Source of the DNA: Wickerhamiella versatilis
Lineage: Eukaryota
Assembly (NCBI GenBank): GCA_030867685.1
Contig: JAQOWU010000008.1
Coordinates: 4,340,001-4,404,000, forward strand
DNA length: 64,000 nucleotides
Direction of reading: 5' to 3'
Numbering within the stretch: the stretch's first letter is position 1; each line of letters begins with the position of its first letter. The notes beneath the pieces are model-generated. The model saw nothing but the letters and a program-made list of their open reading frames with translations, was not told the origin of the DNA and searched no databases. Below, piece by piece: positions 20,100 to 61,866 of the stretch. Position numbers and translations under genes: made by a program.

Positions 20100-20420
20100 T
20101 TGTAGCAAAGTGAATAAGCTATTCAACCTTTACAAGACACCCAAACTATAGGAAGCTGTTGGTTGGATCTTGCTTATCTCATGTTATGATTACACACGCA
20201 ATGTAAGTGGGATGCGTTCAGGCTATGATAATCTTGCGATAAGATCTATACGAATTTCATAAAGCTGACACTTACTTACTTATACTGATTGATAACTCAA
20301 AAGTTCACAATCACATCCTTATAGCGGTAAATTCTTAATCACTGTGAGATGGTTTTTGATAAAAGGAAATTAATTTAAATACGTTTATATAGCTCATAGG
20401 ACTTACTATTTCAACTACTA

Positions 20421-31377: not shown

Positions 31378-32544
31378 CTATGATGAGATCGTGTGAGATG
31401 GACTAGGACCAGATGGGGCAGAAACAAAAGGAGGATGTCCGGATGGTAGGACACCAGATAAAGGTAGAGCTGATAGGGGGCTACCAGAAGGTAGTAAGCC
31501 GGGGGCTCCACGCTTTTTGAGTTGTGCAGCTGTCACTGAACGAGAAGTGATGAAATCCGAAGGAATTGGGCCAGAGGGAATTGGATCGGAAGGGATTGGA
31601 CCAGAAGGAATAGGACCCGATGGAACAGGAATCGATAGAGGTTGTCCAGAAGCAGCACGCTTCTTGAATTTAGCCTCTGAAGTTGGACCGGAAGGAATTG
31701 GACCGGAAGGAATTGGACCGGAAGGAATTGGACCGGAAGGAATAGGACCGGATGGAATAGGACCCGAGGGAGGCGGACCAGGTAGTGGAGAGCCAGAAAC
31801 CTCACGCTTCTTGACTTCAGCAGCTGGGATTGAGCCAGAAGGAGGGGGACCCGAAGGGATGGGGCCAGGTGGTGGAGAGCCAGAAGCATCACGCTTCTTG
31901 AATTTAGCCTCTGAAGTTGGACCGGAAGGAATTGGACCGGAAGGAATTGGACCGGAAGGAATTGGACCGGAAGGAATTGGACCGGAAGGAATAGGACCGG
32001 ATGGAATAGGACCCGAGGGAGGCGGACCAGGTGGTGGAGAGCCAGAAGCATCACGCTTCTTGAATTTAGCCTCTGAAGTTGGACCAGAAGGAATTGAGCC
32101 AGAAGGAATGGGACCCGAGGGAGGCGGACCAGGTGGTGGAGAGCCAGAAACCTCACGCTTCTTGACTTCAGCAGCTGGGATTGAACCAGAAGGAGGGGGA
32201 CCCAAAGGGATGGGGCCAGAAGGAATTGAGCCAGAAGGAATGGGACCCGAAGGGATGGGACCAGGTGGTGGAGAGCCAGAAACCTCACGCTTCTTGACTT
32301 CAGCAGCTGGGATTGAACCAGAAGGAGGGGGACCCGAAGGGATGGGGCCAGAAGGAATGGGACCAGATGGAACAGGACCAAATAAAGGAGGGCCAGAAGT
32401 ATCTCGCTTGCTAAGTTCAGCAGCTGGGGCTAAACTAGATAAAGCAGCACCAGGTATAGAAGCGTATGAAGGCACAGGTCTACTGGGATCTGTAGCTGGA
32501 GCTGCGTATGTGAGACTGAGCAAATAAAGATATGAAAACAACAT
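31378..32544 (-). CDS. Secreted Pro/Ser/Gly-rich repeat protein with 8 Kex2 (KR) sites; Kex2-processed repeat protein precursor
   Basis: Signal peptide MLFSYLYLLSLTYA and (PSGPI)n blocks separated by AAEVKKR/EAKFKKR. TATA-like TATAAA lies just upstream on the minus strand. Confidence 0.85.
   Translation of the reverse strand: MLFSYLYLLSLTYAAPATDPSRPVPSYASIPGAALSSLAPAAELSKRDTSGPPLFGPVPSGPIPSGPIPSGPPPSGSIPAAEVKKREVSGSPPPGPIPSGPIPSGSIPSGPIPLGPPPSGSIPAAEVKKREVSGSPPPGPPPSGPIPSGSIPSGPTSEAKFKKRDASGSPPPGPPPSGPIPSGPIPSGPIPSGPIPSGPIPSGPIPSGPTSEAKFKKRDASGSPPPGPIPSGPPPSGSIPAAEVKKREVSGSPLPGPPPSGPIPSGPIPSGPIPSGPIPSGPIPSGPTSEAKFKKRAASGQPLSIPVPSGPIPSGPIPSDPIPSGPIPSDFITSRSVTAAQLKKRGAPGLLPSGSPLSALPLSGVLPSGHPPFVSAPSGPSPSHTISS
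31560..32395. repeat. Coding 15-bp minisatellite (GGACCGGAAGGAATT) nested in higher-order ~90-160 bp units
   Basis: Perfect 15-bp arrays at about 31685-31740 and 31919-31990, with repeated CACGCTTCTTGA spacers. Confidence 0.9.
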
Positions 32545-36309: not shown

Positions 36310-36975
36310 TTAGCCAGTGGCAAGCTTCTTTAGCTGGGTAATATCGCCATTGAAAATATCAGAGTCGCCACCTGCGGAATAAGAATCCGCATTTTGCCAA
36401 ATAGTCTCAAAAGGCCAGCCTCCGGGGGCGGCCTGAGGTGAGGATCCCCAGCTAGCAAGCATGAGGGGAGAATTCTTGCTGAATTTTGTACTATCTCCAG
36501 TACATTCCTTCCACCATGATGGAGAGGTGTACAAAATTGGGTAGCGACCTGTTTTGGAGTGATATGTATCGACAAAGTCGCTGATATAGTTGACGGTAAA
36601 GGAGGCGCTTCCTGGGCAGACACCCTCCAGATCTAGCATACCTGGAAGGGTTATTCCGTCATCACTCCATCCTCCACCATGAGCGAGAAAATACTCCGCC
36701 TCAGAGGCACCATTTCCATAACTTGCAAAGTGGTAACCTCCACGAATTAGGCCCGCCTCAGTAGCTCCCGTATACTGCTCACTGAATTCGGGGCTGATAT
36801 AGCTGGTACCCTCCGTTGCCTTAATGACAACGAATCGGGCACCATTTGAATAGGCAGATTTGAAATCTACATTGGGCTGGTAGCTAGAGATATCAAATCC
36901 TTGCACGGAGGCTGCGGAAGCAGCACCAATCATATATCCTAAGAAACCCAGACTGCCAATATTGTTCAACCTCAT
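36310..36975 (-). CDS. Secreted GH25 lysozyme (Chalaropsis-type N,O-diacetylmuramidase)
   Basis: Signal peptide, VQGFDISSYQ, IKATEGT, IRGGYHFA, GGGWSDDGITLPGMLDLE (catalytic D and DxE). Confidence 0.93.
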   Translation of the reverse strand: MRLNNIGSLGFLGYMIGAASAASVQGFDISSYQPNVDFKSAYSNGARFVVIKATEGTSYISPEFSEQYTGATEAGLIRGGYHFASYGNGASEAEYFLAHGGGWSDDGITLPGMLDLEGVCPGSASFTVNYISDFVDTYHSKTGRYPILYTSPSWWKECTGDSTKFSKNSPLMLASWGSSPQAAPGGWPFETIWQNADSYSAGGDSDIFNGDITQLKKLATG

Positions 36976-37203
36976 TTTTTATTGGGAATCTTCACAGAAT
37001 TTATTTTTTAGGCAATAATATATATATTAATATGGGCTAGGAGGGGGCAAGGAATATGAATTCGACCAACCAGATGCCTTGCTTGCATCGTACTTATGTG
37101 TAAGATGATCACCGAAATTGTCTTGCATGAGACCGCAGGTCCTTCGACATTGCTTTATATAAATAAACTAATAATTATACTTCCAGTTTGCACATTGCTG
37201 TAA

Positions 37204-38355
37204 ATGAGGTCATTTCCATTTCATCTTCTCCCGGTATTCAATCATTTAATGTGCACACCATTTTTTGGTGCCTCGAGCCTAACTATGAATGGTGCTATTG
37301 CCAGTCCACAATTAGAAGGGACTAGCCAAAAGTCAAGCATGTGTGATCTTGAAGATGTTGAATTACTTGCAGCAACACATGTTATATATTCGTACAGCGG
37401 CGCGGAACCTCCTCTAGAACTACTCAACCTGACAGAACAGGGGAAAGTCGGTGGCATTATGCTTTTCGGTGGAAACGTTAACGATAATCTCTCAATTAAT
37501 ATTGAGAAAATTCAGCAAGCATATAAGATGAGTCCTGCATACTTTGGCAAACCTCTTTTGATTTCAACTGATCAAGAAGGAGGCTATGTGAAAAGGATAC
37601 CTGGTGGGCCATATGAATCTGCAAAGGAGGCAGGACAACAAAGAAACCCAATTTGTGCCGCGTTACAGGACGGAAAGGATGCAGGACAAACGCTCAAGAG
37701 TCAAGGAGTAAATGTGAATTTGGCACCAGTGCTAGGTGTTTATCGATCGGAAAGTAATTTTTTGAATCAGTTTAACAGGTCATACAGCAATGATACAACC
37801 ATTGTCTCAGCCTGTGGTTCTTCGTTTATTCAGTCGGAACAAAAAGTAGGCATTGCGAGTACTGCAAAGCATTTCCCTGGGCTAGGCTTAGCAGGAAGTG
37901 ATACCACTGATGGGGTACCAGTGACAATAAACTCGACTCTTAAAGAGCTCAGAGAGATTGATATTGTACCGTTTCGTAATGCCATATCAGATGGCGTCGA
38001 CCTAGTTATGGTCTCATGGGCATTCTATGATGCCTTGGATGGCAGCTTACCAGCAGGATTGAGCAAGAAGTGGGTAAAAGGGGAACTTAGAAATGAAATT
38101 GGTTTTGAGGGTGTAACAATTACAGATGCAATTGAAGCAGGTGCCCTCATATCTTTCGGAGATGATAATGAAAGAGCTATCCTCGCAACCCAGGCCGGCA
38201 TGGATCTAATTTCTGCAGGACGTCGCAATGTATCGCAAGGTCTATCGATTGTGAAGGCACTTAGTGCTAAATTGGCTGACGGTTCATTGCCACTTCAAGA
38301 ATTCAGAGAAGCTACTAACCGGATTCAAAAACTCCAAATGAAACTTGGAGCCTAG
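37204..38355 (+). CDS. Single-domain GH3 beta-N-acetylglucosaminidase-like (NagZ-related)
   Basis: LLISTDQEGG.V.R, NLAPV, AKHFPGLG, ITDAIE. No C-terminal GH3 domain. Confidence 0.85.
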   Translation: MRSFPFHLLPVFNHLMCTPFFGASSLTMNGAIASPQLEGTSQKSSMCDLEDVELLAATHVIYSYSGAEPPLELLNLTEQGKVGGIMLFGGNVNDNLSINIEKIQQAYKMSPAYFGKPLLISTDQEGGYVKRIPGGPYESAKEAGQQRNPICAALQDGKDAGQTLKSQGVNVNLAPVLGVYRSESNFLNQFNRSYSNDTTIVSACGSSFIQSEQKVGIASTAKHFPGLGLAGSDTTDGVPVTINSTLKELREIDIVPFRNAISDGVDLVMVSWAFYDALDGSLPAGLSKKWVKGELRNEIGFEGVTITDAIEAGALISFGDDNERAILATQAGMDLISAGRRNVSQGLSIVKALSAKLADGSLPLQEFREATNRIQKLQMKLGA

Positions 38356-46653: not shown

Positions 46654-48211
46654 ATGAAGCTCGATATCTTTGAATTAAGACAGAGTAGCGAGTCCCAAAG
46701 AAAAGATCATGAGAAAGGCTGGATAGCTGATATACATCTGGGATGTTCAGAATCTCTGAACCGTGAGTACTCGATGCTGAGTGTCTTTTCATTTACGATA
46801 TCGATTTCGGCCCTTTTTGCAACAGTAGGAACGTCATTTGCTTATCCTTTGATAGCTGGAGGACCAGTATGTATTGTATGGTCATGGCTAATAGGTGGTG
46901 TAGGCTCCCTTCTCATCGCATTGTCAGTTTCAGAACTCGTAAGTGCCTATCCGCGTTCTGGAGGGTTGTACTATGTATGCAGCCGTGTTTTTCCTGCGGA
47001 ACCTAGTTGGCACGGATGGGCCCCGCTGATGGCATGGGTCAATGGGATACCTTAGTTTAGGTGGACAACTGGCTTGCGCAGCTTCCTCAGAGTGGGGTGG
47101 CGCTCAAATGGTTCTGAGTGCCGCTTCAATGGGGTCGGACTTTACCTATATTCCTACAGACTCCCATACTGTCGGTACGGTGAGCGCAATCATTCTATTT
47201 CATGGTTTTATTAATTGTCTACCCACAAAATATGTGGAACGTTTAGGTAGAGTCTACTTTGTGCTACACTACGCTGCGCTCGTTGCGGGCGTGATTACTC
47301 TCCTGGTATGTACGAAGGACAAGAATAATGTTGACTACGTGTTTAAAAAATTTGATTCGACCTCAGGATGGTCTCCAGATGGCTGGTCATTTATGTTTGG
47401 CTTCCTTGCTGTTAGTTGGACACTTACCAATTATGATGCACCTGCACACTTGTGTGAGGAGACCAAGAGCCCAGATACCAAGGTGCCTTGGGGTATTGCC
47501 ACTGGAAATTCAGTTACAGTACTCCTTGGTTTTGTTTACAATATAGTCTTATGCTTTTGTATGGGTCGGCCAGATTCTATCGTTGATGCTTCTCTGCCTG
47601 TAGCACAAATATACTATAACCAGCTTGGTAAAGCAGGAGGTATCACATTTACCATACTAATGTTTCTGGTAATGAACTTTGCTTGCATTAGTATAATCCA
47701 GGCTGCAAGTAGAACAATGTGGGCTCAAGGAAGGGACAATTTATTTGGAAGACGAGGTTCGCGACTAGTAGGAAGGGTCAATCACGTTACGAATACTCCA
47801 ATAAATTCTGTATTAATCTCTTCTTTCCTGTGTATCTGTATAAACTTGATTGGGCTCGGTAGCGACGAGACAATTAATGCTATATTTAATGCTACACCAA
47901 TTCTTATTGATTGGTCCGCATGCATACCAATTATTGGGAAGCTACTTAATCCCAAATTATTTAAACGTGGTCCCTGGCATCTGGGAAAAGCATCGACTGC
48001 TATAAATGTCGCTTCAGTCCTGTGGACATCTTTTGTGAGCATTGTTTTTGTTATGCCCAGCTCAATGCCAGTGAACAAAGAAAATATGAATTACTGTGTT
48101 GTTTTCATAATTGCTCTATTGTTTTCATCTCTACTAGGATGGCGATTTGGTGGTAAAAGAGCTTATAAAGGTCCTGAGGAGGAATCAGAGATCGAATACT
48201 CGGAAAAGTAG
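46654..48211 (+). pseudogene. Fungal APC amino-acid/GABA/polyamine permease (Uga4/Tpo5-like), split by a 1-nt frameshift
   Basis: ORFs 46654-47055 and 47042-48211 join into one permease (SELVSAYPRSGGLYY...WVNG|YLSLGGQ...YDAPAHLCEET) if one G is removed from AATGGGATAC (47044-47046). Could be an assembly error. Confidence 0.85.
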
Positions 48212-48304: not shown

Positions 48305-49759
48305 CTAGTTCCATATAAGCAATTTCAAGGGTGTCGGTTCATAACCACTGCATGGGTTATTGAGCTGGGGGCAATTTGAGATCAGCACCACTAGGTCCAT
48401 TTTGGCTTTCATCTCTACATATTTTCCTGGGCCTGATACACCATCAGCAAAGTCAAGCACACCATCTGGGGAGACAGGGACATTCATGAAAAAGTTAATA
48501 TTATGAGCGATATCGCGTTTGGTGATCCCAAACTCTGGATGCAGAGCTGTTGCAAGCATCCAGTTGTCACGGCATGAATGCATATGTCGCCTTTCCAGAT
48601 CATATCGGACAGTGTTGCTCTCACTGGCACATGCTCCACCAAGTGTATCATGCCTACCACATGTGTCGGCTGTAATCTCTAACATTTCATTACCCAGATT
48701 TGAAAGAAGTTTGGTGCCCGTACTCAAATACAAATTTTTCTGTTCCCGAATTGTATCCATGCAGCTATAACGCTCTGAGGTATCATCTGCGCGAAAGAAA
48801 AGCGTATCCGCGGCTTCATTGCCTTCAACGTCTACAATTCTTAAGGTTTGTCCTTTCCTAACCTTTCCAATGTAATGATCGCCGGCATCAATGACGTAGT
48901 GAGTGATAGCATTTTCCTCACGTTTGATGCTCTCCAAAAGACGAGGGTTTTCAAATTTCATATTAGCGAACCTGTCCACCACATCGAAGCTGCTTTTGTC
49001 ACTAGAGTCATGTAATGATAGTGAGCTCAAATTCCGTAGTCCTAAGTGATAGAGACGATTATTCTCAAATCCTCTCTTGTTTTCAGGACAGTGTTTAAGG
49101 CACAAGTCGGAAGATAGCATGGGAGGTGCTTCACTGAGGTTGATATCAACACCTCTCTTGATATAATTTAGGCTCGAATCCATAGGATGTGGACAGGTGT
49201 GGATAATTACAAGTGTGTCCATCTCGAAACGAAGTGTAACACTACTTCCAGGCTTACAATTTCCAGGAACGTAAGCCAGCTCCCCGCGATCGTCACATTC
49301 CACTTTACTGAAAATATTCAGGTTTGCAGGCATATCTCGTCGTCCGAGGCCATATTTGGCCATCTCAATAAGAAAACTTTCGTATCCGGTTTGAGTGCGA
49401 TCGTTATGAGCTGACTGGAAGCCAACTTCTTGCCAAAATTTACGCAGCATGAGATCTCTAGTAAGATTCCCACCCACGCAATCGTGCCAACCCACATTGT
49501 CTGCGACAATTGAAGCAAAAATTCTTCCCATATCAGAATAGATACAATTTCCACGTGACAACTTGAATGTATGCTGACACTTTAACGTATCGGGTAGATT
49601 CAGACGCTCCAACTTATTTTCAGGGTTGAAGAATAACATACCAACATTCGTATCTTCATATTGGGTAGACAATGTCATTGTGGTACCTTGACGTAGTCGT
49701 AATGACCAGTGCTGGCCACCGGGTAAATGTGTAGTGTAGCTGAATTCTTTTTGTTCCAT
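48305..49759 (-). CDS. cgdAB: Fused carboxyguanidine deiminase CgdA-CgdB (two urea-carboxylase-associated DUF1989 proteins in one ORF)
   Basis: N-half LPGGQHWS...ERLNLPDTLKCQHT...YSDMGR...WHD...CPHP. C-half GQTLRIVDVEGNEAADTLF...DTCGRHDTLGGAC...NINFFMNVPV...SNCPQLNNPC. A Ser-rich linker separates them. Confidence 0.9.
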   Translation of the reverse strand: MEQKEFSYTTHLPGGQHWSLRLRQGTTMTLSTQYEDTNVGMLFFNPENKLERLNLPDTLKCQHTFKLSRGNCIYSDMGRIFASIVADNVGWHDCVGGNLTRDLMLRKFWQEVGFQSAHNDRTQTGYESFLIEMAKYGLGRRDMPANLNIFSKVECDDRGELAYVPGNCKPGSSVTLRFEMDTLVIIHTCPHPMDSSLNYIKRGVDINLSEAPPMLSSDLCLKHCPENKRGFENNRLYHLGLRNLSSLSLHDSSDKSSFDVVDRFANMKFENPRLLESIKREENAITHYVIDAGDHYIGKVRKGQTLRIVDVEGNEAADTLFFRADDTSERYSCMDTIREQKNLYLSTGTKLLSNLGNEMLEITADTCGRHDTLGGACASESNTVRYDLERRHMHSCRDNWMLATALHPEFGITKRDIAHNINFFMNVPVSPDGVLDFADGVSGPGKYVEMKAKMDLVVLISNCPQLNNPCSGYEPTPLKLLIWN

Positions 49760-50111
49760 AATGCGACTGTAAAAGTTGTGAAGACTGTTACCATAAGATA
49801 TATCAATATATACTCCGCGGACTTAGTATCAAAATCTCGCTACAAATTACCCTGCAACTCGGAGCGACGGTTACCAGGATCGGCAAACGGACGCCGCAGC
49901 TAGTTGCATAACTTTGTCATGGTAACGAGTACTGCATATGAAGAAATGGCAATTTAGAGCGAATAAGCCACTTTACTTTATTTTAAAATATGAGATAGAT
50001 ACTAGTGGAAAGTTATAGCGATGATATGTGTTTAATCACGGTGCTTAGAATCTCAATCAGATCTACAAATAACCGCTATACCCTTCAATTTAATTCAAAC
50101 AACCGCTTCAC
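49760..50111. promoter_or_regulatory. Bidirectional promoter between cgdAB and the carboxylase
   Basis: 352 bp between divergent ATGs, with a GC-rich core carrying four CGG triplets and three GTTACCA copies. Confidence 0.6.
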
Positions 50112-53100
50112 ATGTTCGATAAGGTATTGATAGCGAACCGTGGTGCAATAGTAACGCGAATTCTTCGCACCTTGAAACGATTAAAGATAAAAGCGGTTGT
50201 TGTATATGCTGAAAGCGACCGCGAAGCGCCATATGTACATGATGCGGATGAATCCTACTCTCTCGGTGATGGAACAGCTAGCCAAACATACCTTGACATG
50301 GAAAAAATTCTCATTATCGCTCGCAAAAGTGGAGTGGAGGCTATACACCCTGGATATGGGTTTCTATCGGAGAATGCCGACTTTATTAACGCCTGTGATA
50401 AATCAAAAATTGTCTTTCTTGGTCCTAAGGCACATCATGTTCAGGAATTCGGCTACAAGCATCGGGCGAGGCAATGTGCTGAACGAGCAGCTGTAGCACT
50501 AGTGCCTGGTTCTGGACTTCTTGATGATGTGGAAAAAGCTCAGAAAGTAGCTCAAGAAATAGGTTTTCCCGTGATACTCAAATCAACTGCTGGTGGGGGA
50601 GGTATTGGTATGCAGGTGTGTGAAGACTCCTCGGCTTTGAGTCGATCTTTTGAGTCTGTACAAACTCTCAGTAAGCGTAATTTTGGGAACGGAGATGTCT
50701 ATATAGAGGCTTTTATACCTAAAGCCCGTCACCTGGAAGTCCAGATATTTGGTGATGGTACAGGCAAAGTAGTAGCTCTTGGAGAGCGGGATTGTTCATC
50801 GCAGCGCCGCAATCAAAAAGTTGTTGAAGAATGTCCAGCACCCGCACTGCCCGATCGTGTAAAACAGGAAATTCATGACACAGCTAGGCGCCTCGGGGAA
50901 TCGGTTAAGTACCAAAGCGCAGGCACTGTAGAGTTTATCTATGACGTACCTCGTCAAAAGTTTTACTTTCTTGAGGTCAATACGCGACTTCAAGTAGAGC
51001 ATGGGGTCACAGAACTAGTTTGGAATGTTGATCTTGTCGAGTGGATGGTTCGTCTAGGGGCAGGTGAGCTGCCTCAGTTAGACTCTCTAAGGAGTAACCT
51101 AGCACCTTCTGGCCATGCTATTCAGGCAAGAATATATTCTGAAGATCCCCTACATAACTTTCGTCCTAGTTCAGGACTTCTCACAGAAGTGAGATTTCCC
51201 GAGTTCCATGGACTACGAATTGATCACGCACTGAAGGCAGGAATTGAAGTCTCGGCGCTTTATGACCCCATGATTGCGAAGGTGATATCTTTCAGTTCTA
51301 ATCGCAACAATGCTTGTGACCTGCTAAGGGAATCACTTGAAAATACTCAGATTTATGGAGTCATCACGAATAAGGAGTGGCTAGTAGCTCTACTTACTAG
51401 TAGAAGCTTTTTATCCGGAAATATTTATACTCAATGGTTAGAGTCATTTCAGTGGTTACCAGATGCAATCGAAATACTAGCATCAGGTACCCTCACGACT
51501 ATTCAAGATTATCCTGGCCGCCAAGGATATTGGAATGTCGGTGTTCCTCCCTCTGGGCCCTTCGATGACTGGTCCTTCCGACTTGGAAATCGCCTTCTAG
51601 AGAATCCAGAGAATGCTGCAGGATTTGAGATAACGCTAAATGGACCCAAAATACAGTTTTTCGTCGCAACCCAGATAGTAATTGCTGGCTCATCATACTC
51701 AGCGACACTCAATGGAAACCCTATCCAGCCGTGGGTAGTTATTGATGTGAATGTAAGGGATATACTCTCTATGGGCTCTGTATGCAATGGTATGAGAAGC
51801 TACCTATTGTTCCGCGGGGGTGTCAAGTGCCCTCTGTATTTAGGCTCACGTAGCACGTTCACCCTGGGACAATTTGGTGGCCATGTTGGGCGCTCACTGA
51901 AGACAGGAGACCAACTTGGCCTCAACAAGCTTCCTCCGGTTCGAACTCGTATTCTTAATCCTTCCCTATTGCCAAGATATTCTAATGGCGATGGACTCTG
52001 GGAAATATCAGTATGCTATGGACCTCATGGCGCCCCAGATTTTTTCACAGAACAGGACATCAATACTCTATTCAGTCACCAATGGAAAGTTCATTATAAT
52101 TCAAGTCGTACTGGTGTTAGACTTATGGGACCGCATCCTGAGTGGGCCCGTAGTGATGGTGGAGAAGCAGGTCTGCACCCGTCTAATATACATGACAATG
52201 CATATGCATTTGGTACAATTGACTTTACTGGAGACATGCCTATCATCCTCGGTCCTGATGGACCCTCTTTAGGAGGTTTTGTCTGTCCTGCCACAGTAAT
52301 CCACAGTGATCGCTGGAAAATAGGGCAGTTGGCACCCGATGACAGAGTTAAATTCGTTCCTGTCTCAATGAATCAAGCGCAAGCCATTGAGAGACAGTAC
52401 ACTCATGCTCTAGAAAACTTATCCCCACTATGCCTGCCTGCTATTATACCATCTAAAGGCTCACCTATTCTACGTGAAGTAGAAGCAAGTGAAGCCGGTG
52501 AATGTATAACATATCGTTGTGCTGGTGACGATTTTCTACTTATCGAGTTTGGACCCATAATTCTCGACATATCTCTTCGCTTTAGGGTGCATACCTGGAT
52601 GCTTTGGGTAGAGTCGCATAAATTACCGGGAATAAAAGAATTGACGCCAGGAATACGCTCTTTGCAGATACACTACGATCCCAGCAGATTGTCGATAGAA
52701 GCACTTTTGATTCATTTAAGGCAAGCTGAGAATGAGCTGCGCAGTATTAATGATTTAGAAGTTGAGACTCGTGAGATATTCCTCCCAATTTCTTGGGATG
52801 ATCCTGACTGCCAAAAGGCAATCGATCATTACCAGCAGAGTGTCAGACCAGGAGCACCATGGTGTCCAAGCAATTTAGAATTCATCCGTCGAATCAATGG
52901 ACTTAAAGATATCAGTCAAATAAGAGATATTATTTTTGATGCTAGCTATCTTGTCATGGGGCTGGGTGATGTATATCTTGGTGCGCCAGTGGCCACTCCA
53001 TTAAATCCAACACAACGGCTCGTAACCACAAAGTATAACCCAGCTCGTACATGGACGGCAGAGAATTCAGTTGGTATAGGTGGCGCTTACCTTTGTGTTT

Positions 53101-53711
53101 ATGGGATGGAAGGTCCTGGTGGATACCAATTTGTCGGGCGGACATTGCAAATGTGGAATCGTTACGAGAGTACCGAATATTTCAGTAACCCCTGGTTATT
53201 GAAGTTTTTCGACCAGTTGCGATTCTATGAAGTTAGTCATGACGAATTGATCAGAATACGTCGAGACTTTCCACATGGTCGTTTCAAGCTGAATGTTCGT
53301 CAGAATACTTTCCGATTAGCAGACTACGTCGAAGATATGAAGAAGATTCAAGAGGATGTCGATGAGTTTCGCGTAAAGCGCGAAAAAGCTTTTCAGGAGG
53401 AAATTGCCAGATGGCATGCGAATGGTCAATTCACGTTTGAAGAAGACCCGAAGGAGTTGTACAGTAATGATAACCCAGTTGTTGAAGATGGCGAGCTGCA
53501 GGTTGAAAGTCCAGTCTCGGGGAACATATGGAAAGTGATGGTGAATGTTGGCGATTTCGTACAGAAAGACGACACACTTGTACTTATAGAGTCGATGAAA
53601 ATGGAACTCGCGGTATGTGCCCAGTGTAATGGAGCTATTGAGAGAATTCTGATCAAGGAAGGGGTTATGACTACCAACGGTCAGCCTTTGATCGTTATGA
53701 AAGAAATATGA
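50112..53711 (+). CDS. uca: Stand-alone bacterial-type urea/guanidine carboxylase (biotin carboxylase + carboxyltransferase + BCCP; no allophanate hydrolase domain)
   Basis: MFDKVLIANRGAI, FLEVNTRLQVEHGVTE, GLHPSNIHDNAYAFGTIDFTGDMP, TKYNPARTWT and biotinylation site ESMKME. 1199 aa versus about 1830 aa for yeast Dur1,2. Confidence 0.95.
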   Translation: MFDKVLIANRGAIVTRILRTLKRLKIKAVVVYAESDREAPYVHDADESYSLGDGTASQTYLDMEKILIIARKSGVEAIHPGYGFLSENADFINACDKSKIVFLGPKAHHVQEFGYKHRARQCAERAAVALVPGSGLLDDVEKAQKVAQEIGFPVILKSTAGGGGIGMQVCEDSSALSRSFESVQTLSKRNFGNGDVYIEAFIPKARHLEVQIFGDGTGKVVALGERDCSSQRRNQKVVEECPAPALPDRVKQEIHDTARRLGESVKYQSAGTVEFIYDVPRQKFYFLEVNTRLQVEHGVTELVWNVDLVEWMVRLGAGELPQLDSLRSNLAPSGHAIQARIYSEDPLHNFRPSSGLLTEVRFPEFHGLRIDHALKAGIEVSALYDPMIAKVISFSSNRNNACDLLRESLENTQIYGVITNKEWLVALLTSRSFLSGNIYTQWLESFQWLPDAIEILASGTLTTIQDYPGRQGYWNVGVPPSGPFDDWSFRLGNRLLENPENAAGFEITLNGPKIQFFVATQIVIAGSSYSATLNGNPIQPWVVIDVNVRDILSMGSVCNGMRSYLLFRGGVKCPLYLGSRSTFTLGQFGGHVGRSLKTGDQLGLNKLPPVRTRILNPSLLPRYSNGDGLWEISVCYGPHGAPDFFTEQDINTLFSHQWKVHYNSSRTGVRLMGPHPEWARSDGGEAGLHPSNIHDNAYAFGTIDFTGDMPIILGPDGPSLGGFVCPATVIHSDRWKIGQLAPDDRVKFVPVSMNQAQAIERQYTHALENLSPLCLPAIIPSKGSPILREVEASEAGECITYRCAGDDFLLIEFGPIILDISLRFRVHTWMLWVESHKLPGIKELTPGIRSLQIHYDPSRLSIEALLIHLRQAENELRSINDLEVETREIFLPISWDDPDCQKAIDHYQQSVRPGAPWCPSNLEFIRRINGLKDISQIRDIIFDASYLVMGLGDVYLGAPVATPLNPTQRLVTTKYNPARTWTAENSVGIGGAYLCVYGMEGPGGYQFVGRTLQMWNRYESTEYFSNPWLLKFFDQLRFYEVSHDELIRIRRDFPHGRFKLNVRQNTFRLADYVEDMKKIQEDVDEFRVKREKAFQEEIARWHANGQFTFEEDPKELYSNDNPVVEDGELQVESPVSGNIWKVMVNVGDFVQKDDTLVLIESMKMELAVCAQCNGAIERILIKEGVMTTNGQPLIVMKEI

Positions 53712-53775: not shown

Positions 53776-54195
53776 CTAAATTATCGTCACATTATATACC
53801 GTAGACAACATTAACTTACTTACCATTTTGAGGCCCACAACACCACCTACTATCATAGATAAGAACACAAATTTAGTTAAGTCCATGGACTCAGTACCCC
53901 ACAGTACAGATACACTTACTGTCGCGACCCCGCCTACTGCAGTCCACACCGCATAAGCCGTACCAGTTGGTACAAAACTCATTGACCAACCCAAACCTCC
54001 CATACTTATAGAAAGACCAACTAGGAAAATTGATATAGGTGCAGCTTTGTGTGGCCCCTCCACATTCCCGAGAGCTGTAGCCCAAACGGCCTCGAACAGT
54101 CCGGACACCAGCAATATTAACCAAGCACTTTGGTTACTGTTCGCAGCAAAGCTTCCGGATTCTTGTTTGAGCGAAAATGAATTTGGAATCCACAT
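53776..54195 (-). CDS. gdx: SMR-family guanidinium exporter Gdx/SugE, bacterial type
   Basis: AWLILLVSGLFEAVWATAL (membrane Glu13 and Trp16 equivalents), ISM, PTGTAYAVWT, GVVGLK. Four TM helices with short N- and C-terminal extensions. Confidence 0.88.
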   Translation of the reverse strand: MWIPNSFSLKQESGSFAANSNQSAWLILLVSGLFEAVWATALGNVEGPHKAAPISIFLVGLSISMGGLGWSMSFVPTGTAYAVWTAVGGVATVSVSVLWGTESMDLTKFVFLSMIVGGVVGLKMVSKLMLSTVYNVTII

Positions 54196-55052: not shown

Positions 55053-56180
55053 ATGTATAAGGTACTTGTTCTCGGTGGATCATTTGCCGGTGTATGCATC
55101 TCACATGCCCTCCTGAAACAAAATTCAGACGTGCACGTAACCCTAGTAAACCCCCACGATGATTTTTACTTTTGCCTAGCAGGGCCCCGCATATTTGCAG
55201 ATCCGAGCTTTTTTAAGCCAGAACAATATTTACACTCCATAAAGGAAGCATTTAAGAAGTATGGGCGCAGGTTTGAGTTTGTGAAAGGCTTGGCTGAGGA
55301 CATCGACCTAAATGACAAAACCGTACTGCTCTCAAGTTCCCAGAGACTTTCATACGACTACCTTGTAATAGCTACTGGTAGCAAAACAACATTTGATGCT
55401 TTCAAACCATCAGGCGATTTAAAAGAAAGCATTAAAAACCTTCAGGATCAAATAGCCAAATCTAAAAGTATAGCGATTGGTGGTGGTGGACCTTTAGGTA
55501 TTGAAATTGCTGGAGAAATTGCAAACTCGTATCCATCAAAAAGCCTTGTACTCATTTGTGCTACAGATCGGTTATTGGACACACTCAAGCCTTCTGCTGG
55601 TACTAAGGCGAGAAACCTTCTTGCAAAACAGAATGTTAAGGTAATTGAAGGCACGAAGGTAAAAGAATATGTGGATGGAAAGGTCTATCTCACGAGTAAT
55701 CCTATGTCGAAGGTGGTGAAGAAGTCCAAAGTTACTGGATACGTAAGTAAAGAAGCAACTTTCGATAATTCAGGTGAGCCGCTTGATGCAGATTTGTATA
55801 TACCGGCCACAGGTGTCACGCCAAATAACAGTGCCATTCCCAAATCCTTATTGACAAGCAGCGGATATGTTAAAGTTAACAAGAACATGAAAGTCGCGGA
55901 CTATGTATATGCTGCCGGAGATGTGACAAATATTTCCGACAAGCTCGCTAGCAGAGCCATGGATGAGGCTAAGGTAGTAGCCTCCAATATAAGTTCAGAG
56001 GTTCGCGGTACAAGGCCTTCTAAGAAATTTAAAGAAGGGCCATTAATGATGCTTGTACCCATAGGCCCTTCGACAGGGACAGGCCAGATCTCCAACATAA
56101 TCATTAGTGGCTTTTTGATCAAATACATTAAGGCCAAAGATTTTCTGATATCATTCGGTAAATCCATTGCATATCAGTAG
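55053..56180 (+). CDS. AIF/AMID-like FAD-dependent pyridine nucleotide oxidoreductase
   Basis: VLVLGGSFAG, YDYLVIATG, IGGGGPLGIEIAGE, YAAGD. Confidence 0.88.
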   Translation: MYKVLVLGGSFAGVCISHALLKQNSDVHVTLVNPHDDFYFCLAGPRIFADPSFFKPEQYLHSIKEAFKKYGRRFEFVKGLAEDIDLNDKTVLLSSSQRLSYDYLVIATGSKTTFDAFKPSGDLKESIKNLQDQIAKSKSIAIGGGGPLGIEIAGEIANSYPSKSLVLICATDRLLDTLKPSAGTKARNLLAKQNVKVIEGTKVKEYVDGKVYLTSNPMSKVVKKSKVTGYVSKEATFDNSGEPLDADLYIPATGVTPNNSAIPKSLLTSSGYVKVNKNMKVADYVYAAGDVTNISDKLASRAMDEAKVVASNISSEVRGTRPSKKFKEGPLMMLVPIGPSTGTGQISNIIISGFLIKYIKAKDFLISFGKSIAYQ

Positions 56181-56561
56181 ATAGTCAGGATATGACGAAA
56201 TGCTTAATATGTTCCTTTAATCCTGAATATACCAATCAGGAGATTTTATCAGCTCTTTAATTATGGTACTAAGATTATGTGATCGATTCGCTGGTAAATA
56301 ACGTCTTTGATTCATAGTTGCCAAGAAGACGTAACAACGAAATGTCTATAAGTAATTAGGGTCTGTAGAAGTCGATTCCTGAAAATACAATGTATTTCTG
56401 CGCTGGAAGCCATGTCGTTGACTTCAATTTGTAGCAAGATGTTACTGCATCCCAAGATTGTGTAATTTATTTTACATTGCTATGATAGCTTCCCTGGTTC
56501 TCAGATATGATTTCTGCAATATTAGTAATATATCCCCTCCCCACAGGGACAGAAAACGTAA

Positions 56562-57518
56562 ATGCGAGCAGCGGCGGTAGCAGCAGCAGGCGGTCTTGGA
56601 TTGACTATATTACTCTATGTCAAACGCTCCAGGTCATGGGAAATGATTGAACCTAGTTTGAGGAACATTGTGGTTCGTTTCAAAACACCAAACGCAAGTA
56701 CTTGGATCTGGATACTTAGAGTCCTCGGACGGTTACCGCAACCTCTATATCCTAAAACAGTAGTAAGGAAACATGATATCAATGCGAATGGGCTTCAATT
56801 GTATCTTTACTTGCCGGAGAAGGCCACATCGAGAGGAGCTCTTTTCTACGTGCATGGTGGTGGTTTCATCGGTGGAAGTGCACCGCTTTATCATAACCTT
56901 TTATCAGAAATCGCAGGGAAGGCGAAGTGTGTAGTCGCGCAGGTTGAATATCGGTTGGCCCCTAAGAATCCTTATCCAGCTGGGATGGATGATAATTGGG
57001 AAGGATACAAATGGCTCCATGATCATGCAGACGAACTAGGGGTCGATAGAAATTATCTGGTGATAGGTGGAGACAGCGCGGGTGGAGGCCATGCAGCGTC
57101 ATTGGTACATAAGGTTCATGATGAGTGGCCGGCGGCTCAGCCTGTGCTGCAGTTGTTGAATTATCCGATGCTTGATGATAGAACACCCAAACAGTTTCCT
57201 CGTGGGGAGCTCATCTGGACGTGGGAATCAAATCAACACGGTTGGAAGTCGTATATAGGACAAAATCCAGGGAACTATACAGTAGCGGCGAGGAGAAATG
57301 ATCTTAGTGGACTACCTCCTGCTTGGATAGGTGTGGGTAGCCTTGACTTATTCTATGAGGAGGATCTTACCTATGCGTCGAGACTTAAAGAAGCTGGAGT
57401 TCCTTGCACACTAGATATTGTCGAGGGCGCTTATCATGCGTTCGACTTCCTACCCACCCAAATCTCACTACAGTATCGAGAGAGAATGATAGCAGCTTTA
57501 GCTAAGGCTATCAATTGA
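56562..57518 (+). CDS. HSL-family alpha/beta-hydrolase esterase
   Basis: HGGG oxyanion hole, EYRLAP, GDSAGG nucleophile, DLF and YHAFD. Confidence 0.92.
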   Translation: MRAAAVAAAGGLGLTILLYVKRSRSWEMIEPSLRNIVVRFKTPNASTWIWILRVLGRLPQPLYPKTVVRKHDINANGLQLYLYLPEKATSRGALFYVHGGGFIGGSAPLYHNLLSEIAGKAKCVVAQVEYRLAPKNPYPAGMDDNWEGYKWLHDHADELGVDRNYLVIGGDSAGGGHAASLVHKVHDEWPAAQPVLQLLNYPMLDDRTPKQFPRGELIWTWESNQHGWKSYIGQNPGNYTVAARRNDLSGLPPAWIGVGSLDLFYEEDLTYASRLKEAGVPCTLDIVEGAYHAFDFLPTQISLQYRERMIAALAKAIN

Positions 57519-58105
57519 TCCGCTTGGCCCATTATGAATGTTATCTCATTTGCTTGGCTGTCTCTATTCTGTTCTTGGGTTTGGTTTTTGGTTTATCACT
57601 ATGCTTATCGCAAATCTTCTATAAATTTGAGAATTCTTTTTTTTTGGATATGAAAATTATGACACACTTTCTAAGAATTAAAGTTACTCCACAGGGTACT
57701 CACTGTTACACTTATTTACTTAGGGGAAAGTTAAGCGAAAACGTAATGTTTCGCTGATGTAACAACCGGAACTCCGAAACACTTGAAGTTCTATGGATGA
57801 TAGGGTTATGTATACCGCGCTAAAAGGTTCTTTTAGTGCTCTGCAATATCCAATGGATGAAAGATATTTTTACTAGAGCTAACAATCTGACCGGTTGGAT
57901 CAAAAGTTTTGTCACTCCTGTTTAGAAGCGCCGCATTAGTCCCATTCGTTGTATGCAGGAATGTTAGGAATGTTTTTGTAAGCTACGGTCCCCCGAGCTT
58001 CCACCTACGTAATTAATTTGATAATCGAAGTATTATTAAGTATTTATTCTCTATAAGTATATGACGCGATATAAATCCAAGTTAGCAACTGCGGGAATTT
58101 TAGCC

Positions 58106-59002
58106 ATGTGGTCAAATCTCTCTTACCTATTACTCTTGGCTACTGCCCGCTGTAGCCCAACTTGTGCGGCACCCACATCCTCACTATCAATAGCGGAGGT
58201 CTATAATCCTGGACTTGGATCGATCTTCGATGTTTCTTCTGAAATCTTGGAAACAGACGATTATCTGGTACTTTTTGACACGCAGTTCCAGAAAAATGAT
58301 TCAGAAGTATTGGTTCAGAAGATTAAAGACCTCAACAAACCTTTGAAGACAGTTTATGTTACTTATTCAGATCCCGACTATTACTTTGGGGCTGCTGTCA
58401 TTCAAGATGCTTTCCCGGATGCGCAGATAGTTGCTACCCGTCCAGTTGTTGATGCTATAAAGGGAAATGAGGAATTGAAGCAAAAGACCTGGGATAAGCA
58501 GCTGGGTGATAATGCTCCAGACCGGATCGTAATTCCTGACCCTATTGATGTGGGAAGCTGTCATGTTGTACTTGATATTGAGGGACACAAAGTGTATTCC
58601 TACGGAGTTCTGGATAACCGTACATTCAATTGGATTCCTTCACTTGGCACAGTGCTTGGTGGTATACTTGTTGATGTGAATGCTCACGTTTGGTTAGCTG
58701 ATACGCAGACTACAGAATCGCGAGAGATATGGATTCAATCATTGGATCAAATTAAGAGCCTTAATCCAGCAAAGGTCATTCCAGGCCACTTTTACAAGAA
58801 TAGCAATGGCACCGACCCCTTTTCTATCGCATCCATTGATTTCACTGCGGAGTATATCCGTAAATTTAATGAGGAAAACTCTCGCACTGGTAACTCCACT
58901 CAGCTCATCGATGCAATGACAGCAATATATCCTGATCTCGCAGGTACCAGCAATCTCGAAACGAGCGCTCAGGTCATTAAGGGTGAAATTCCTTGGCCAT
59001 AG
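58106..59002 (+). CDS. Secreted MBL-fold metallo-hydrolase-like protein, proteobacterial type
   Basis: VYNPG..SIF.VSS, DTQFQKND, TYSDPDYYFG, HVWLADTQT, VIPGH, C-terminal KGEIPWP. Signal-like start at 58106, alternative ATG 58061. Confidence 0.82.
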   Translation: MWSNLSYLLLLATARCSPTCAAPTSSLSIAEVYNPGLGSIFDVSSEILETDDYLVLFDTQFQKNDSEVLVQKIKDLNKPLKTVYVTYSDPDYYFGAAVIQDAFPDAQIVATRPVVDAIKGNEELKQKTWDKQLGDNAPDRIVIPDPIDVGSCHVVLDIEGHKVYSYGVLDNRTFNWIPSLGTVLGGILVDVNAHVWLADTQTTESREIWIQSLDQIKSLNPAKVIPGHFYKNSNGTDPFSIASIDFTAEYIRKFNEENSRTGNSTQLIDAMTAIYPDLAGTSNLETSAQVIKGEIPWP

Positions 59003-59725
59003 AAGAGCAATTTAGCTATATTATAGAATTCGAACTACCCTAGAAATGAATGATTTATAACTTGAAATTATCGCTGATAAAAATGACTGAAAGAGATCCA
59101 GTCATCTTGGTATTACGGGTGGAGTAGCCTATACATGTCACTGCACGCACTACTGGGGAGCGCAATCTCGCTACCAGTATCAGGCTTAGAAGAATTCTAC
59201 AAGGCATCTTCAATAACCTCTTATCGGCTTATACAGATAGATCTCAAATCTTGGACCTGCATCTACTGACAGAAAAGTATCCTAATCGAACGTAACGAGA
59301 GTTTTAGGTTTGTAATTCTTAGGCACGAGAATCGAGGGTTGGGCAATCACAAGCCAAACAGGGATTGAAAGATACAGTAAAATAAAAAGAAACGACATCG
59401 CATACAATTGTGACTATATATCTTATGACGTTTTTGGTATGGAAAGATCTGTATCAACCAAATCTAGTAGTGGCGTGGTTATTGAGATGAGGCACAATTC
59501 TAGTTCAATACTCTCTGCTATACTTGCTGAGGTTGTGCCACCTTCGCTTATATTATGAGACTTCACGGTTATGAAAGATATCGGTCCGATCCTGGATAAA
59601 CATGATTGGTAATTGGTCTCCACCTATTATATTTAGATGACAAATATTTATAAGCGGAATTGGGTTAAGAGATTATTATAAAAGACAAGTTGTAAGTGTG
59701 AGTGTTTGCAGGAGTGCTCACATCA

Positions 59726-60388
59726 ATGAACGTATCTGAGGCCATTGCGACCCGTCGTTCCGTTAGGAAGTATTTACCCGATCCAGTATCCTTAAGTACC
59801 ATTCAAAAGGTGTTCGATAAAGCCCGCTGGTCGCCATCAGGATGCAACTTTCAACCCTGGGAAGGCACCGTGCTCGCAGGCCAGCCATTGAAGGATCTTC
59901 AAGCAAAGCTTGTGAGTGCACCGAGGGATGATCCTTTGGAGTATGACTGGTCAATACCGGATAAAGTTGAAAAATACCTAAAACGCAAGCAGGAGTTGGG
60001 AGCGTCAATGTATGGTGCCCTAGGTATTAAGCGTGACGATACGGAATCACGTAGGAATTTCGTTGTGGAGAACTTGAAATCCTATGGGGCTCCTGCTCTT
60101 TTGGTGATCTACTTCCCCAAGATGATGGAGGCACCCCAATGGTCCGACGTCGGGATGTGGCTGCAGTCTGTTATGTTACTCCTTCGAGAAGAGGGCCTAG
60201 ACAGCTGCCCTCAAGAGTTATTGGGATGGTACGGTCGTACTATCAAGGCCCATCTTGGCCTTCCGGACGACTACATAGTGTTCTGTGGGTTGACAATTGG
60301 CAAAAGTGATTCAGAAGCCCCCATTAATACATTTGAACGTCCGAGAGTTCCGCTGAGTGACCAAGTGAAATTTGTTGGGTTTGATTAG
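59726..60388 (+). CDS. Nitroreductase family flavoprotein, bacterial type
   Basis: MNVSEAIATRRSVR, SPSGCNFQPW, DVGMWLQSVMLLLREEGLDSCPQE. First ATG 59726. Confidence 0.92.
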   Translation: MNVSEAIATRRSVRKYLPDPVSLSTIQKVFDKARWSPSGCNFQPWEGTVLAGQPLKDLQAKLVSAPRDDPLEYDWSIPDKVEKYLKRKQELGASMYGALGIKRDDTESRRNFVVENLKSYGAPALLVIYFPKMMEAPQWSDVGMWLQSVMLLLREEGLDSCPQELLGWYGRTIKAHLGLPDDYIVFCGLTIGKSDSEAPINTFERPRVPLSDQVKFVGFD

Positions 60389-60876
60389 GGGTTTGTGGAA
60401 GCTATTGCGTCTCCAGAAACGTGGGCTTTGAAAATGTATTCGATGCGGCACGCTGTCATTGATGATGCTAGTGACCGCATGCCACATATTCAGATATCTT
60501 AGTCGATATACCAGGCAGAGGAGGTGCTATGAGCTTATGAGTATGTGGCCCTGAATACCATTGCTATTTCTAGGTCAAGCAATTTTTGAGACCGTCACGA
60601 ACCACAACACTTAATCAGCTATCATAATTCTTAGATTCCACGCTGGAATCTATCTTTGAAAGGACCAGGTAAAAAAAATACAATACTAGAGTATTTAAGA
60701 TTAATCGGACATGAGGTCCTGTGTAATTTCAAAAAAATTGAAATAAAGGATAACAACGACACATGTCACTTTTAAAGTACATTTGGAGTAATCAACCTCG
60801 ACACCAAACCTTAACCCATTCATCATCATATGGGCTCTCTACACTTCAAAAAAAATACTCATTCTATAGAAATCGA

Positions 60877-61866
60877 TTATTCGGGGTACAAGCCATGCGT
60901 TCTTGCAAATAATCTGGCCATGCCAAACAGATCATTCATGCTAGGAGTTTCAATTCGCAACAATCTGGCGAGCTCCACCACACTCGCAAGGATGGCATCA
61001 AGCTCTATAGGCCTTCCTCTTTCTGCATCTTGGAGCATGGATGTTTTAACTGCTCCCAGTCCAGCTGTGAGTTTGTTTCGTTCCTCTGGGGTCCAGGAAA
61101 TATAAAGCCCTAATTTTTCGCCAATAAATTTAGCTTCATTCATGACTTTGACACAGAAAACACTTAAGAACTCATCGTTCAGAATCCTGTCCACAGTAGC
61201 TCCTGTGATTGCAGAAAGAGGATTAAGTGTCATATTACCCCATAGTTTATACCATATCTCTTGTCGTATCTTTGACGTAACTGTAACCCTTAGGCCTGTA
61301 CCTTCGAATAATGATGCAGCTTCACTTAGGACGTGTTCATTGGCTGGAGTAGGCGTACCAAAAATCAAGTGATCACCTCCATTATGAAAGACATGTCCAG
61401 GTTTATCATCCAAAGTGTGCGCGCTGGGATGCACCACACATCCAATAACCTGGTCATTAGGTACAGCTTTTCGAATCAAACCCTCCGGATCGAGGACTGA
61501 GAGTCTCTTTCCATTCAAAGCCTGCAATCCTTCGTCGAACCACCACGGAATACCATTCATTGCCGTGATAATTTGCGTATCAGGTCCAATAAGGGGGGTA
61601 ATTTTGTTGATTATATGAATCAATGCATGCGCCTTGACAGAAATCACTACAAAATCTTGAACTCCCAAATCCTCAGGATTATCGGTTGCAGCAACTCTGA
61701 AAGTACTGATTCCAGCGTTTGTTTGAAGTTTCCAACCTTGACTTCGAATAGATGTCAAGGTTTGGTTACGAGCAATCACACTGACCTCGTTCTCTTTAGC
61801 GCTACAAAGGTTACATCCTATAAGACCACCTATTGCACCAGCTCCGAAGATACAGATTTTTGGCAT
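60877..61866 (-). CDS. panE: 2-dehydropantoate 2-reductase (PanE/ApbA family), proteobacterial type
   Basis: ICIFGAGAIGG, VKAH, AMNGIPWWF, WYKLWGNMTLNPLSA, SMLQDAE.GRPIE. Confidence 0.88.
   Translation of the reverse strand: MPKICIFGAGAIGGLIGCNLCSAKENEVSVIARNQTLTSIRSQGWKLQTNAGISTFRVAATDNPEDLGVQDFVVISVKAHALIHIINKITPLIGPDTQIITAMNGIPWWFDEGLQALNGKRLSVLDPEGLIRKAVPNDQVIGCVVHPSAHTLDDKPGHVFHNGGDHLIFGTPTPANEHVLSEAASLFEGTGLRVTVTSKIRQEIWYKLWGNMTLNPLSAITGATVDRILNDEFLSVFCVKVMNEAKFIGEKLGLYISWTPEERNKLTAGLGAVKTSMLQDAERGRPIELDAILASVVELARLLRIETPSMNDLFGMARLFARTHGLYPE

Follow-up and report, generated by a model that had tools for sequence, protein, structure and literature searches.

The described systems closest to the locus presented here are the bacterial guanidine carboxylases (Gca) and the urea carboxylase domain of Kluyveromyces lactis Dur1,2, between which a residue rule has been published: Palatinszky et al. 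2024 (Nature), citing earlier work, name an aspartate at K. lactis position 1330 as separating guanidine from urea carboxylase, and their Methods section further required aspartate at K. lactis position 1584 in guanidine carboxylases (PMC11410670). A 2025 review likewise assigns aspartate to guanidine carboxylases and asparagine to urea carboxylases (PMC12186494). For fungi, Strope et al. 2011, covering 64 species, reported stand-alone 'urea carboxylases' from members of Basidiomycota and Pezizomycotina but not from Saccharomycetes (PMC3073912). Here we analyze a 64,000-nucleotide stretch of the Wickerhamiella versatilis genome (assembly GCA_030867685.1, contig JAQOWU010000008.1, positions 4,340,001 to 4,404,000 of the forward strand; hereafter the window), which encodes a carboxylase of 1199 residues. 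In what we consider very probably the correct explanation, this protein is a biotin-dependent guanidine carboxylase, derived from Halomonadaceae and residing with a CgdAB partner in an ascomycete yeast; its substrate preference is predicted from sequence, and the host fungus is probably able to use guanidine as a nitrogen source.

The carboxylase and its guanidine-type aspartate

The gene and the residues on which the comparison turns are the following, in coordinates of the window:

50112..53711, + strand: carboxylase open reading frame (ORF), 3600 nt, 1199 residues, intact; predicted guanidine carboxylase (Gca)
52221..52223, + strand: Asp704 (GAC), guanidine-type residue, aligned to K. lactis Asn1330
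52968..52970, + strand: Asp953 (GAT) in GLGDVYLG, equivalent of K. lactis Asp1584 in the 5i8i alignment
53031..53033, + strand: Lys974 (AAG) in TTKYNPA, equivalent of K. lactis Lys1605, probable general base in carboxyl transfer
53112..53114, + strand: Gly1001 (GGT), immediately before PGGYQ, a second site co-varying with position 704
53598..53600, + strand: Lys1163 (AAA) in an MKM motif, expected biotin attachment site

A Pfam scan resolves the protein into the N-terminal, ATP-grasp and C-terminal parts of a biotin carboxylase, followed by carboxyltransferase domains A-B and C-D and then by a biotinyl carrier, and finds no amidase domain anywhere in the 1199 residues. The NCBIfam model TIGR02712, whose cutoff is 1304 bits, matches from end to end with a score of 1701. 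The lysine of the MKM motif is the site of biotin attachment in biotin carrier domains, and the Lys1163 column is nearly invariant in our alignment (A1). Two K. lactis structures match best among those solved, the urea carboxylase (3va7, 1152 bits) and the complete urea amidolyase (5i8i); each alignment spans residues 2-1193 and scores about 1150 bits.

On the 5i8i chain, carboxylase residues 700-708 ('fgtiDftgd') fall on residues 1326-1334 ('lgaiNftgd'), so that Asp704 pairs with Asn1330; the same alignments pair Asp953 with D1584 and Lys974 with K1605, the probable general base of the K. lactis enzyme (PMC5770610), and the numbering is thus self-consistent. An earlier note on this DNA had proposed from the letters alone that the carboxylase carries the guanidine-type aspartate in place of the urea-type asparagine. 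The peptide that it singled out, [24 protein letters not shown], corresponds to residues 687-710 of the + strand ORF at 50112-53711 and is encoded at 52170-52241, with the GAC codon of Asp704 exactly at 52221-52223 as claimed. The interval that it gave, 52171..52290, contains the site but starts one base inside codon 687 and extends to residue 727, a trivial offset. The yeast motif with asparagine that it gave is correct for K. lactis, the alignment it called for places D704 on the specificity position, and the rule it relied on is in print, in the two sources cited above (PMC11410670, PMC12186494), and applies to residue 704. The guanidine-type interpretation of Asp704 is supported.

Beyond Asp704, the protein has an aspartate at the position of K. 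lactis 1584 (Asp953), where aspartate is needed in both enzyme types, the catalytic lysine (Lys974), the biotinyl-lysine motif (M-K1163-M) and a single-chain domain set without amidase (Pfam, TIGR02712), and it lacks the asparagine or serine that urea-type enzymes present at K. lactis 1330. As judged from its sequence, the window carboxylase thus displays every hallmark of a guanidine carboxylase that could be checked at this level.

Distribution of the specificity residue and a second co-varying site

We surveyed column 704 in the 119 nearest proteins (P0002-P0120) and in a diverse set of 150 cluster representatives, 114 of which have a residue aligned there. Aspartate occupies the column in 118 of the close relatives and asparagine in the remaining one (P0054), with Asp953 and Lys974 kept in all 119; the 114 representatives comprise 37 with aspartate, 56 with asparagine, 10 with serine and 11 with other residues. 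Because of these counts, column 704 is a real two-state marker of the family and not a freely variable site. Eleven long representatives were scanned with Pfam, and the eight that bear an allophanate hydrolase/amidase part carry asparagine (six) or serine (two) at this column and in no case aspartate (0/8). The equation of urea-type with asparagine drawn in the earlier note consequently holds for six of eight amidase-fused forms but not for the two with serine. Serine at the diagnostic column, in the context 'GSVSFTGDEAV', marks a group of relatives comprising P0247, P0248, P0259, P0269, P0284 and P0314, of which the two that were checked, P0248 and P0259, carry an allophanate hydrolase part.

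A column-by-column comparison of Asp-type with Asn/Ser-type rows in a 54-row set identified one further column that splits the rows perfectly: column 1001 is glycine in 36/36 Asp-type and serine in 18/18 Asn/Ser-type rows, the latter with the three asparagine rows nested within the Asp clade among them. Among the 119 close relatives, the residues at 704 and 1001 are paired as D+G in 117, D+S in one (P0053) and N+S in one (P0054). The pairing could be scored in 76 of the 150 representatives, those with both sites aligned and a PGGY(Q) motif present, and these comprise 19 D+G, 38 N+S, seven S+S, two N+G and 10 other combinations (N with A, Q, T or C; M with G; S with G; Y with L). In K. lactis, serine precedes PGGYQ (chain index 1633), and the window carboxylase shows the guanidine-type state at both sites. 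These patterns suggest that specificity may rest on a coupled switch, Asp704 with Gly1001 versus Asn/Ser with Ser, and not on Asp704 alone; residue 1001 may contact the substrate.

Association with predicted carboxyguanidine deiminase genes

The carboxylase gene lies next to a second gene of the predicted pathway, from which it diverges:

48305..49759, - strand: CgdA-CgdB fusion, 484 residues, two DUF1989 domains; predicted single-chain carboxyguanidine deiminase
49760..50111, no strand: divergent intergenic region of 352 bp, common to CgdAB and the carboxylase; presumed bidirectional promoter

CgdAB matches PF09347 twice, with a UAAP1 part at residues 8-238 and a UAAP2 part at residues 284-483, and scores 445 bits against TIGR03425 and 418 bits against TIGR03424. 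A fused UAAP1+UAAP2 ORF therefore stands 352 bp from the carboxylase on the opposite strand, an adjacency expected of a guanidine carboxylase; the urea-type arrangement, with allophanate hydrolase fused or adjacent and no cgd gene, is not what we find, as the carboxylase has no amidase domain and CgdAB adjoins it. In bacteria the deiminase has two subunits, and when CgdAB was searched against the Protein Atlas, all clusters returned were bacterial and of single subunits. Fused CgdA-CgdB proteins also occur among relatives of 440-512 residues (P0123-P0136), including the eukaryote-set entries P0131 and P0136 from Mesostigma viride, which suggests that the guanidine carboxylase pathway may exist in further eukaryotes.

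Scanning bacterial and archaeal genomes with alignment A1 identified 71 loci; the match falls in the carboxyltransferase region for 28, and in 26 of these 28 the diagnostic column could be read (20 D, 5 N, 1 Q). An upstream flank is available for 18 of the 20 Asp-type loci, and a usable flank for three Asn-type loci, from Streptomyces drozdowiczii (L015), Amantichitinum ursilacus (L017) and Nocardia noduli (L022); L001, L002 and L016 are without flank, and L049 and L046 are distant. In 18/18 Asp-type versus 0/3 Asn-type loci, a tandem pair of DUF1989 (Cgd-like) ORFs lies directly upstream of the carboxylase. The bacterial gene order is cgdA-cgdB-gca-allophanate hydrolase, all on one strand, and an allophanate hydrolase is also present in 15/18 Asp-type loci and adjoins the carboxylase in 3/3 Asn-type loci. 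Rfam searches further placed a guanidine-I riboswitch upstream and on the same strand in 7/18 Asp-type loci (L005, L007, L018, L019, L020, L021 and L023), with a guanidine-II riboswitch in addition in L018 and L020, and found no guanidine riboswitch in the Asn-type loci (0/3); control by such a riboswitch is frequent in bacterial guanidine carboxylase loci without being universal. The residue was put forward in the earlier note as independent support for guanidine as the substrate; the support stands, but its independence only in part, because the bacterial carboxylase and its cgd partners share one operon and the two genes are adjacent here too.

Phylogenetic placement and probable bacterial origin

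We built a tree of 58 proteins from the carboxyltransferase region with column 704 removed, by a quick IQ-TREE search with support from the Shimodaira-Hasegawa-like approximate likelihood ratio test (SH-aLRT) only. The window carboxylase falls inside a single 40-row clade that gathers the Asp-type proteins (37 D, 3 N; SH-aLRT 98), as would be expected of a guanidine-type enzyme. Its sisters are P0002 (SH-aLRT 100) and then Carnimonas bestiolae P0022 (99), within the Halomonadaceae set (96), and the nearest relatives by identity are P0002 at 74% and then Halomonadaceae at 66-69%. L015 and L022, which are Asn-type, lack cgd genes and have allophanate hydrolase, nest inside Asp-type actinobacteria (support 100). 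In them, residue and gene context changed together a second time, independently of the first, in what looks like a return from the guanidine type to the urea type.

GC content at third codon positions (GC3) is 0.37 for the carboxylase and 0.41 for both CgdAB and the SMR-family gene described below, all within the range of 0.34-0.57 spanned by the other window genes, and GC content is even along the 64 kb. From this host-like composition it follows that the transfer is old enough for full amelioration and is no contamination. As part of the explanation that we favor, and at the strength given for it as a whole, the carboxylase gene would have moved from a Halomonadaceae-like gammaproteobacterium into the ascomycete yeast lineage. 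Related genomes appear to retain the carboxylase/CgdAB/SMR cluster, with carboxylase P0002 (74%) accompanied by CgdAB P0122 (79%), and CgdAB P0121 (97%) by SMR protein P0392 (89%).

Proposed mechanism

Modeled on the steps known for bacteria, as set out in PMC12186494, PMC12508155 and PMC11410670, the fungal pathway would operate as follows. The N-terminal domain would use ATP and bicarbonate to carboxylate biotin on Lys1163, and guanidine would receive the carboxyl group in the carboxyltransferase pocket, which comprises Asp953 and, as base, Lys974. There, Asp704 could provide a carboxylate partner for the guanidinium ion in place of the amide or hydroxyl of urea enzymes (Asn/Ser), and Gly1001, in place of serine, would remove a side chain. 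The fused CgdA-CgdB would then deaminate carboxyguanidine to allophanate, and the final breakdown to ammonia and CO2 would fall to an allophanate hydrolase whose gene lies elsewhere, such as a host enzyme of the Dur1,2 type. The analysis shows the residue identities, their alignment with the published position, the association of aspartate with cgd genes and guanidine riboswitches across the family, the position in the tree and the fungal setting; from these we infer the substrate preference, the part that Asp704 and Gly1001 play in the pocket, the expression of the genes and the source of the allophanate hydrolase.

Neighboring genes and the surrounding region

Two membrane proteins flank the pair formed by CgdAB and the carboxylase:

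46654..48211, + strand: APC-family amino-acid/organocation permease in two overlapping frames offset by a 1-nt frameshift around 47045-47050; may be an importer or a broken gene
53776..54195, - strand: SMR-family membrane protein, SugE/Gdx type, 139 residues, PF00893; possible guanidinium transporter

The SMR protein scores 69.6 bits against the SugE model NF008512, under its cutoff of 126, and has an N-terminal extension of about 23 residues. Its nearest named relatives are 104-residue actinobacterial proteins (Rothia and Gordonia, 55-63%) and not Halomonadaceae, which hints at a second donor for this gene, as read from similarity matches of a short protein. An SMR-like ORF with 62 bits to the window protein follows the allophanate hydrolase in an Asp-type Aliarcobacter locus (L019, 15286-15627), and because of it we can say that SMR genes can belong to bacterial guanidine carboxylase operons. 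The window gene would require a dual-topology SMR protein of bacterial type to insert into a eukaryotic membrane. An intron in the APC permease was ruled out, since its two frames overlap and a shift of 1 nt joins them; the split points to a broken gene or else to an error in the assembly.

GATA-factor sites were considered as evidence of nitrogen regulation and dropped: GATAAG occurs 35 times in the window versus 38 expected, the site at 50118 lies inside coding sequence, and none falls in the 352-bp divergent intergenic region. The window otherwise has fungal content, including two Zn2Cys6 regulators, a eukaryotic aspartyl protease, a two-domain CrcB (FEX-type) protein, GDT1 and GH76; the nearest Atlas cluster of the GDT1 neighbor is mostly Ascomycota, and nearly all window genes are single ORFs, as would suit a budding yeast. 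The cluster lies within a region rich in genes of accessory type (36310-38355 and 55053-61866), with a GH25 lysozyme-like protein, GH3, a nitroreductase, a metallo-beta-lactamase fold, an alpha/beta hydrolase, a ketopantoate reductase-like protein, four MFS transporters and two Zn2Cys6 regulators, and some of these genes may be bacterial in origin. Three ORFs have no Pfam match at E <= 0.001: 2438-5383 (+, 981 residues), 18402-20126 (-, 574 residues) and 31378-32544 (-, 388 residues).

Alternative explanations

Several observations weigh against a functional guanidine carboxylase in this yeast. In the literature we found no enzymology for the window protein or any eukaryotic homolog. The contrast between 18 and three bacterial loci holds only about two phylogenetically independent Asp/Asn changes, and because independent contrasts are so few the association of aspartate with cgd genes, strong by count, is modest in phylogenetic weight. 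The tree, quickly searched and supported by SH-aLRT values alone, includes several long-branch rows, and the pairing of sites 704 and 1001 has exceptions in P0053 (D+S), P0253 and P0384 (both N+G). In the window itself, the neighboring APC permease is frameshifted, tblastn gave 0 hits for an allophanate hydrolase in the 64 kb, and Rfam found no guanidine riboswitch or remnant; the absence of a riboswitch and of a linked allophanate hydrolase is expected in a eukaryotic host.

That the protein is an ordinary urea carboxylase, with Asp704 as a neutral clade marker that has no effect on the substrate, would agree with the names of its closest relatives, all 'urea carboxylase' in NCBI/UniRef, with the match to the NCBIfam equivalog TIGR02712 of the same name, and with the fold and catalytic residues common to it and the K. 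lactis urea carboxylase. We nevertheless regard it as very unlikely: database names predate or ignore the guanidine work (PMC12186494), aspartate accompanies cgd genes in 18/18 loci and guanidine riboswitches in 7/18 yet occurs in 0/8 amidase-fused true urea amidolyases, and an adjacent CgdAB would be needless for urea carboxylation. Little probability also attaches to the idea that the enzyme acts on other or broader guanidino or amidino substrates, such as methylguanidine or compounds of the guanylurea type, with free guanidine not the main physiological one. In the donor-like Halomonadaceae, additional genes broaden the pathway to include methylguanidine, which one riboswitch fails to discriminate (PMC12508155). 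The fungal cluster, for its part, has lost the bacterial regulators. In PMC12508155, however, methylguanidine is demethylated to guanidine before carboxylation, the conserved partner CgdAB acts on carboxyguanidine, and Pfam scans revealed no mgdH- or mgdL-like gene next to the cluster. Even less credible to us is a decaying, unexpressed horizontal acquisition devoid of present function, although the frameshifted permease next to the cluster and the lack of an allophanate hydrolase in the window would fit it, since the 3600-nt ORF is intact with all landmark residues kept, its base composition matches that of the host, and carboxylase, CgdAB and SMR protein are conserved at 60-97% identity in related genomes. 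A guanidine carboxylase of bacterial derivation, working with CgdAB, is thus the explanation that we retain.

Comparison with known systems

The Asp/Asn rule is itself already published, and because it has been used in print the residue alone adds no new principle; the interest of the finding lies in its fungal location. Our literature search, whose coverage left out most subscription journals and supplements, found no description of a guanidine carboxylase from a fungus or other eukaryote, and the setting of a horizontally acquired eukaryotic enzyme looks unreported. We offer a wider account tentatively, at rather less than even confidence: that the window holds the first guanidine-carboxylase pathway to be described from a eukaryote, a Halomonadaceae-like gca-cgdAB module remodeled by fusion of cgdA with cgdB, a divergent promoter, loss of the riboswitch and delegation of allophanate hydrolysis to the host, placed beside an actinobacterial-like SMR gene and so assembled from multiple donors, allowing growth on guanidine and relying on a two-residue switch. 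If functional, the cluster would extend guanidine assimilation from bacteria to a eukaryote and be a clear example of how a catabolic module from bacteria was remodeled once transferred into yeast. The homology annotation 'urea carboxylase' would then be corrected, and the Gly/Ser site offers a concrete two-residue hypothesis for guanidine/urea discrimination that can be tested with mutants.

Compared with the K. lactis Dur1,2 urea carboxylase domain (3VA7, 5I8I), to which it aligns over its full length at 1152 bits, the window carboxylase shares the equivalents of Asp1584 and Lys1605 and the biotin motif, but the K. lactis enzyme differs in having Asn1330 where the window protein has Asp704, serine (1633) where it has Gly1001, and a fused allophanate hydrolase. 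The bacterial Gca systems, with Pseudomonas syringae as the model and an operon from Vreelandella boliviensis (Halomonadaceae; PMC12508155), agree with the window carboxylase in domain order, in aspartate at K. lactis 1330 and 1584, lysine at 1605 and glycine before PGGYQ, and in the adjacency of cgd genes. Unlike them, the window system is eukaryotic and of host-like composition, its cgdA and cgdB are fused and diverge from the carboxylase, and its cluster is without riboswitch, ABC importer and allophanate hydrolase. The fungal carboxylases described by Strope et al. 2011 (PMC3073912) resemble the window gene in lacking an amidase domain and in their bacterial origin; the nearest relatives of the window gene, however, are not other named fungi but Halomonadaceae, whose proteins are 66-69% identical to it over the carboxyltransferase region.

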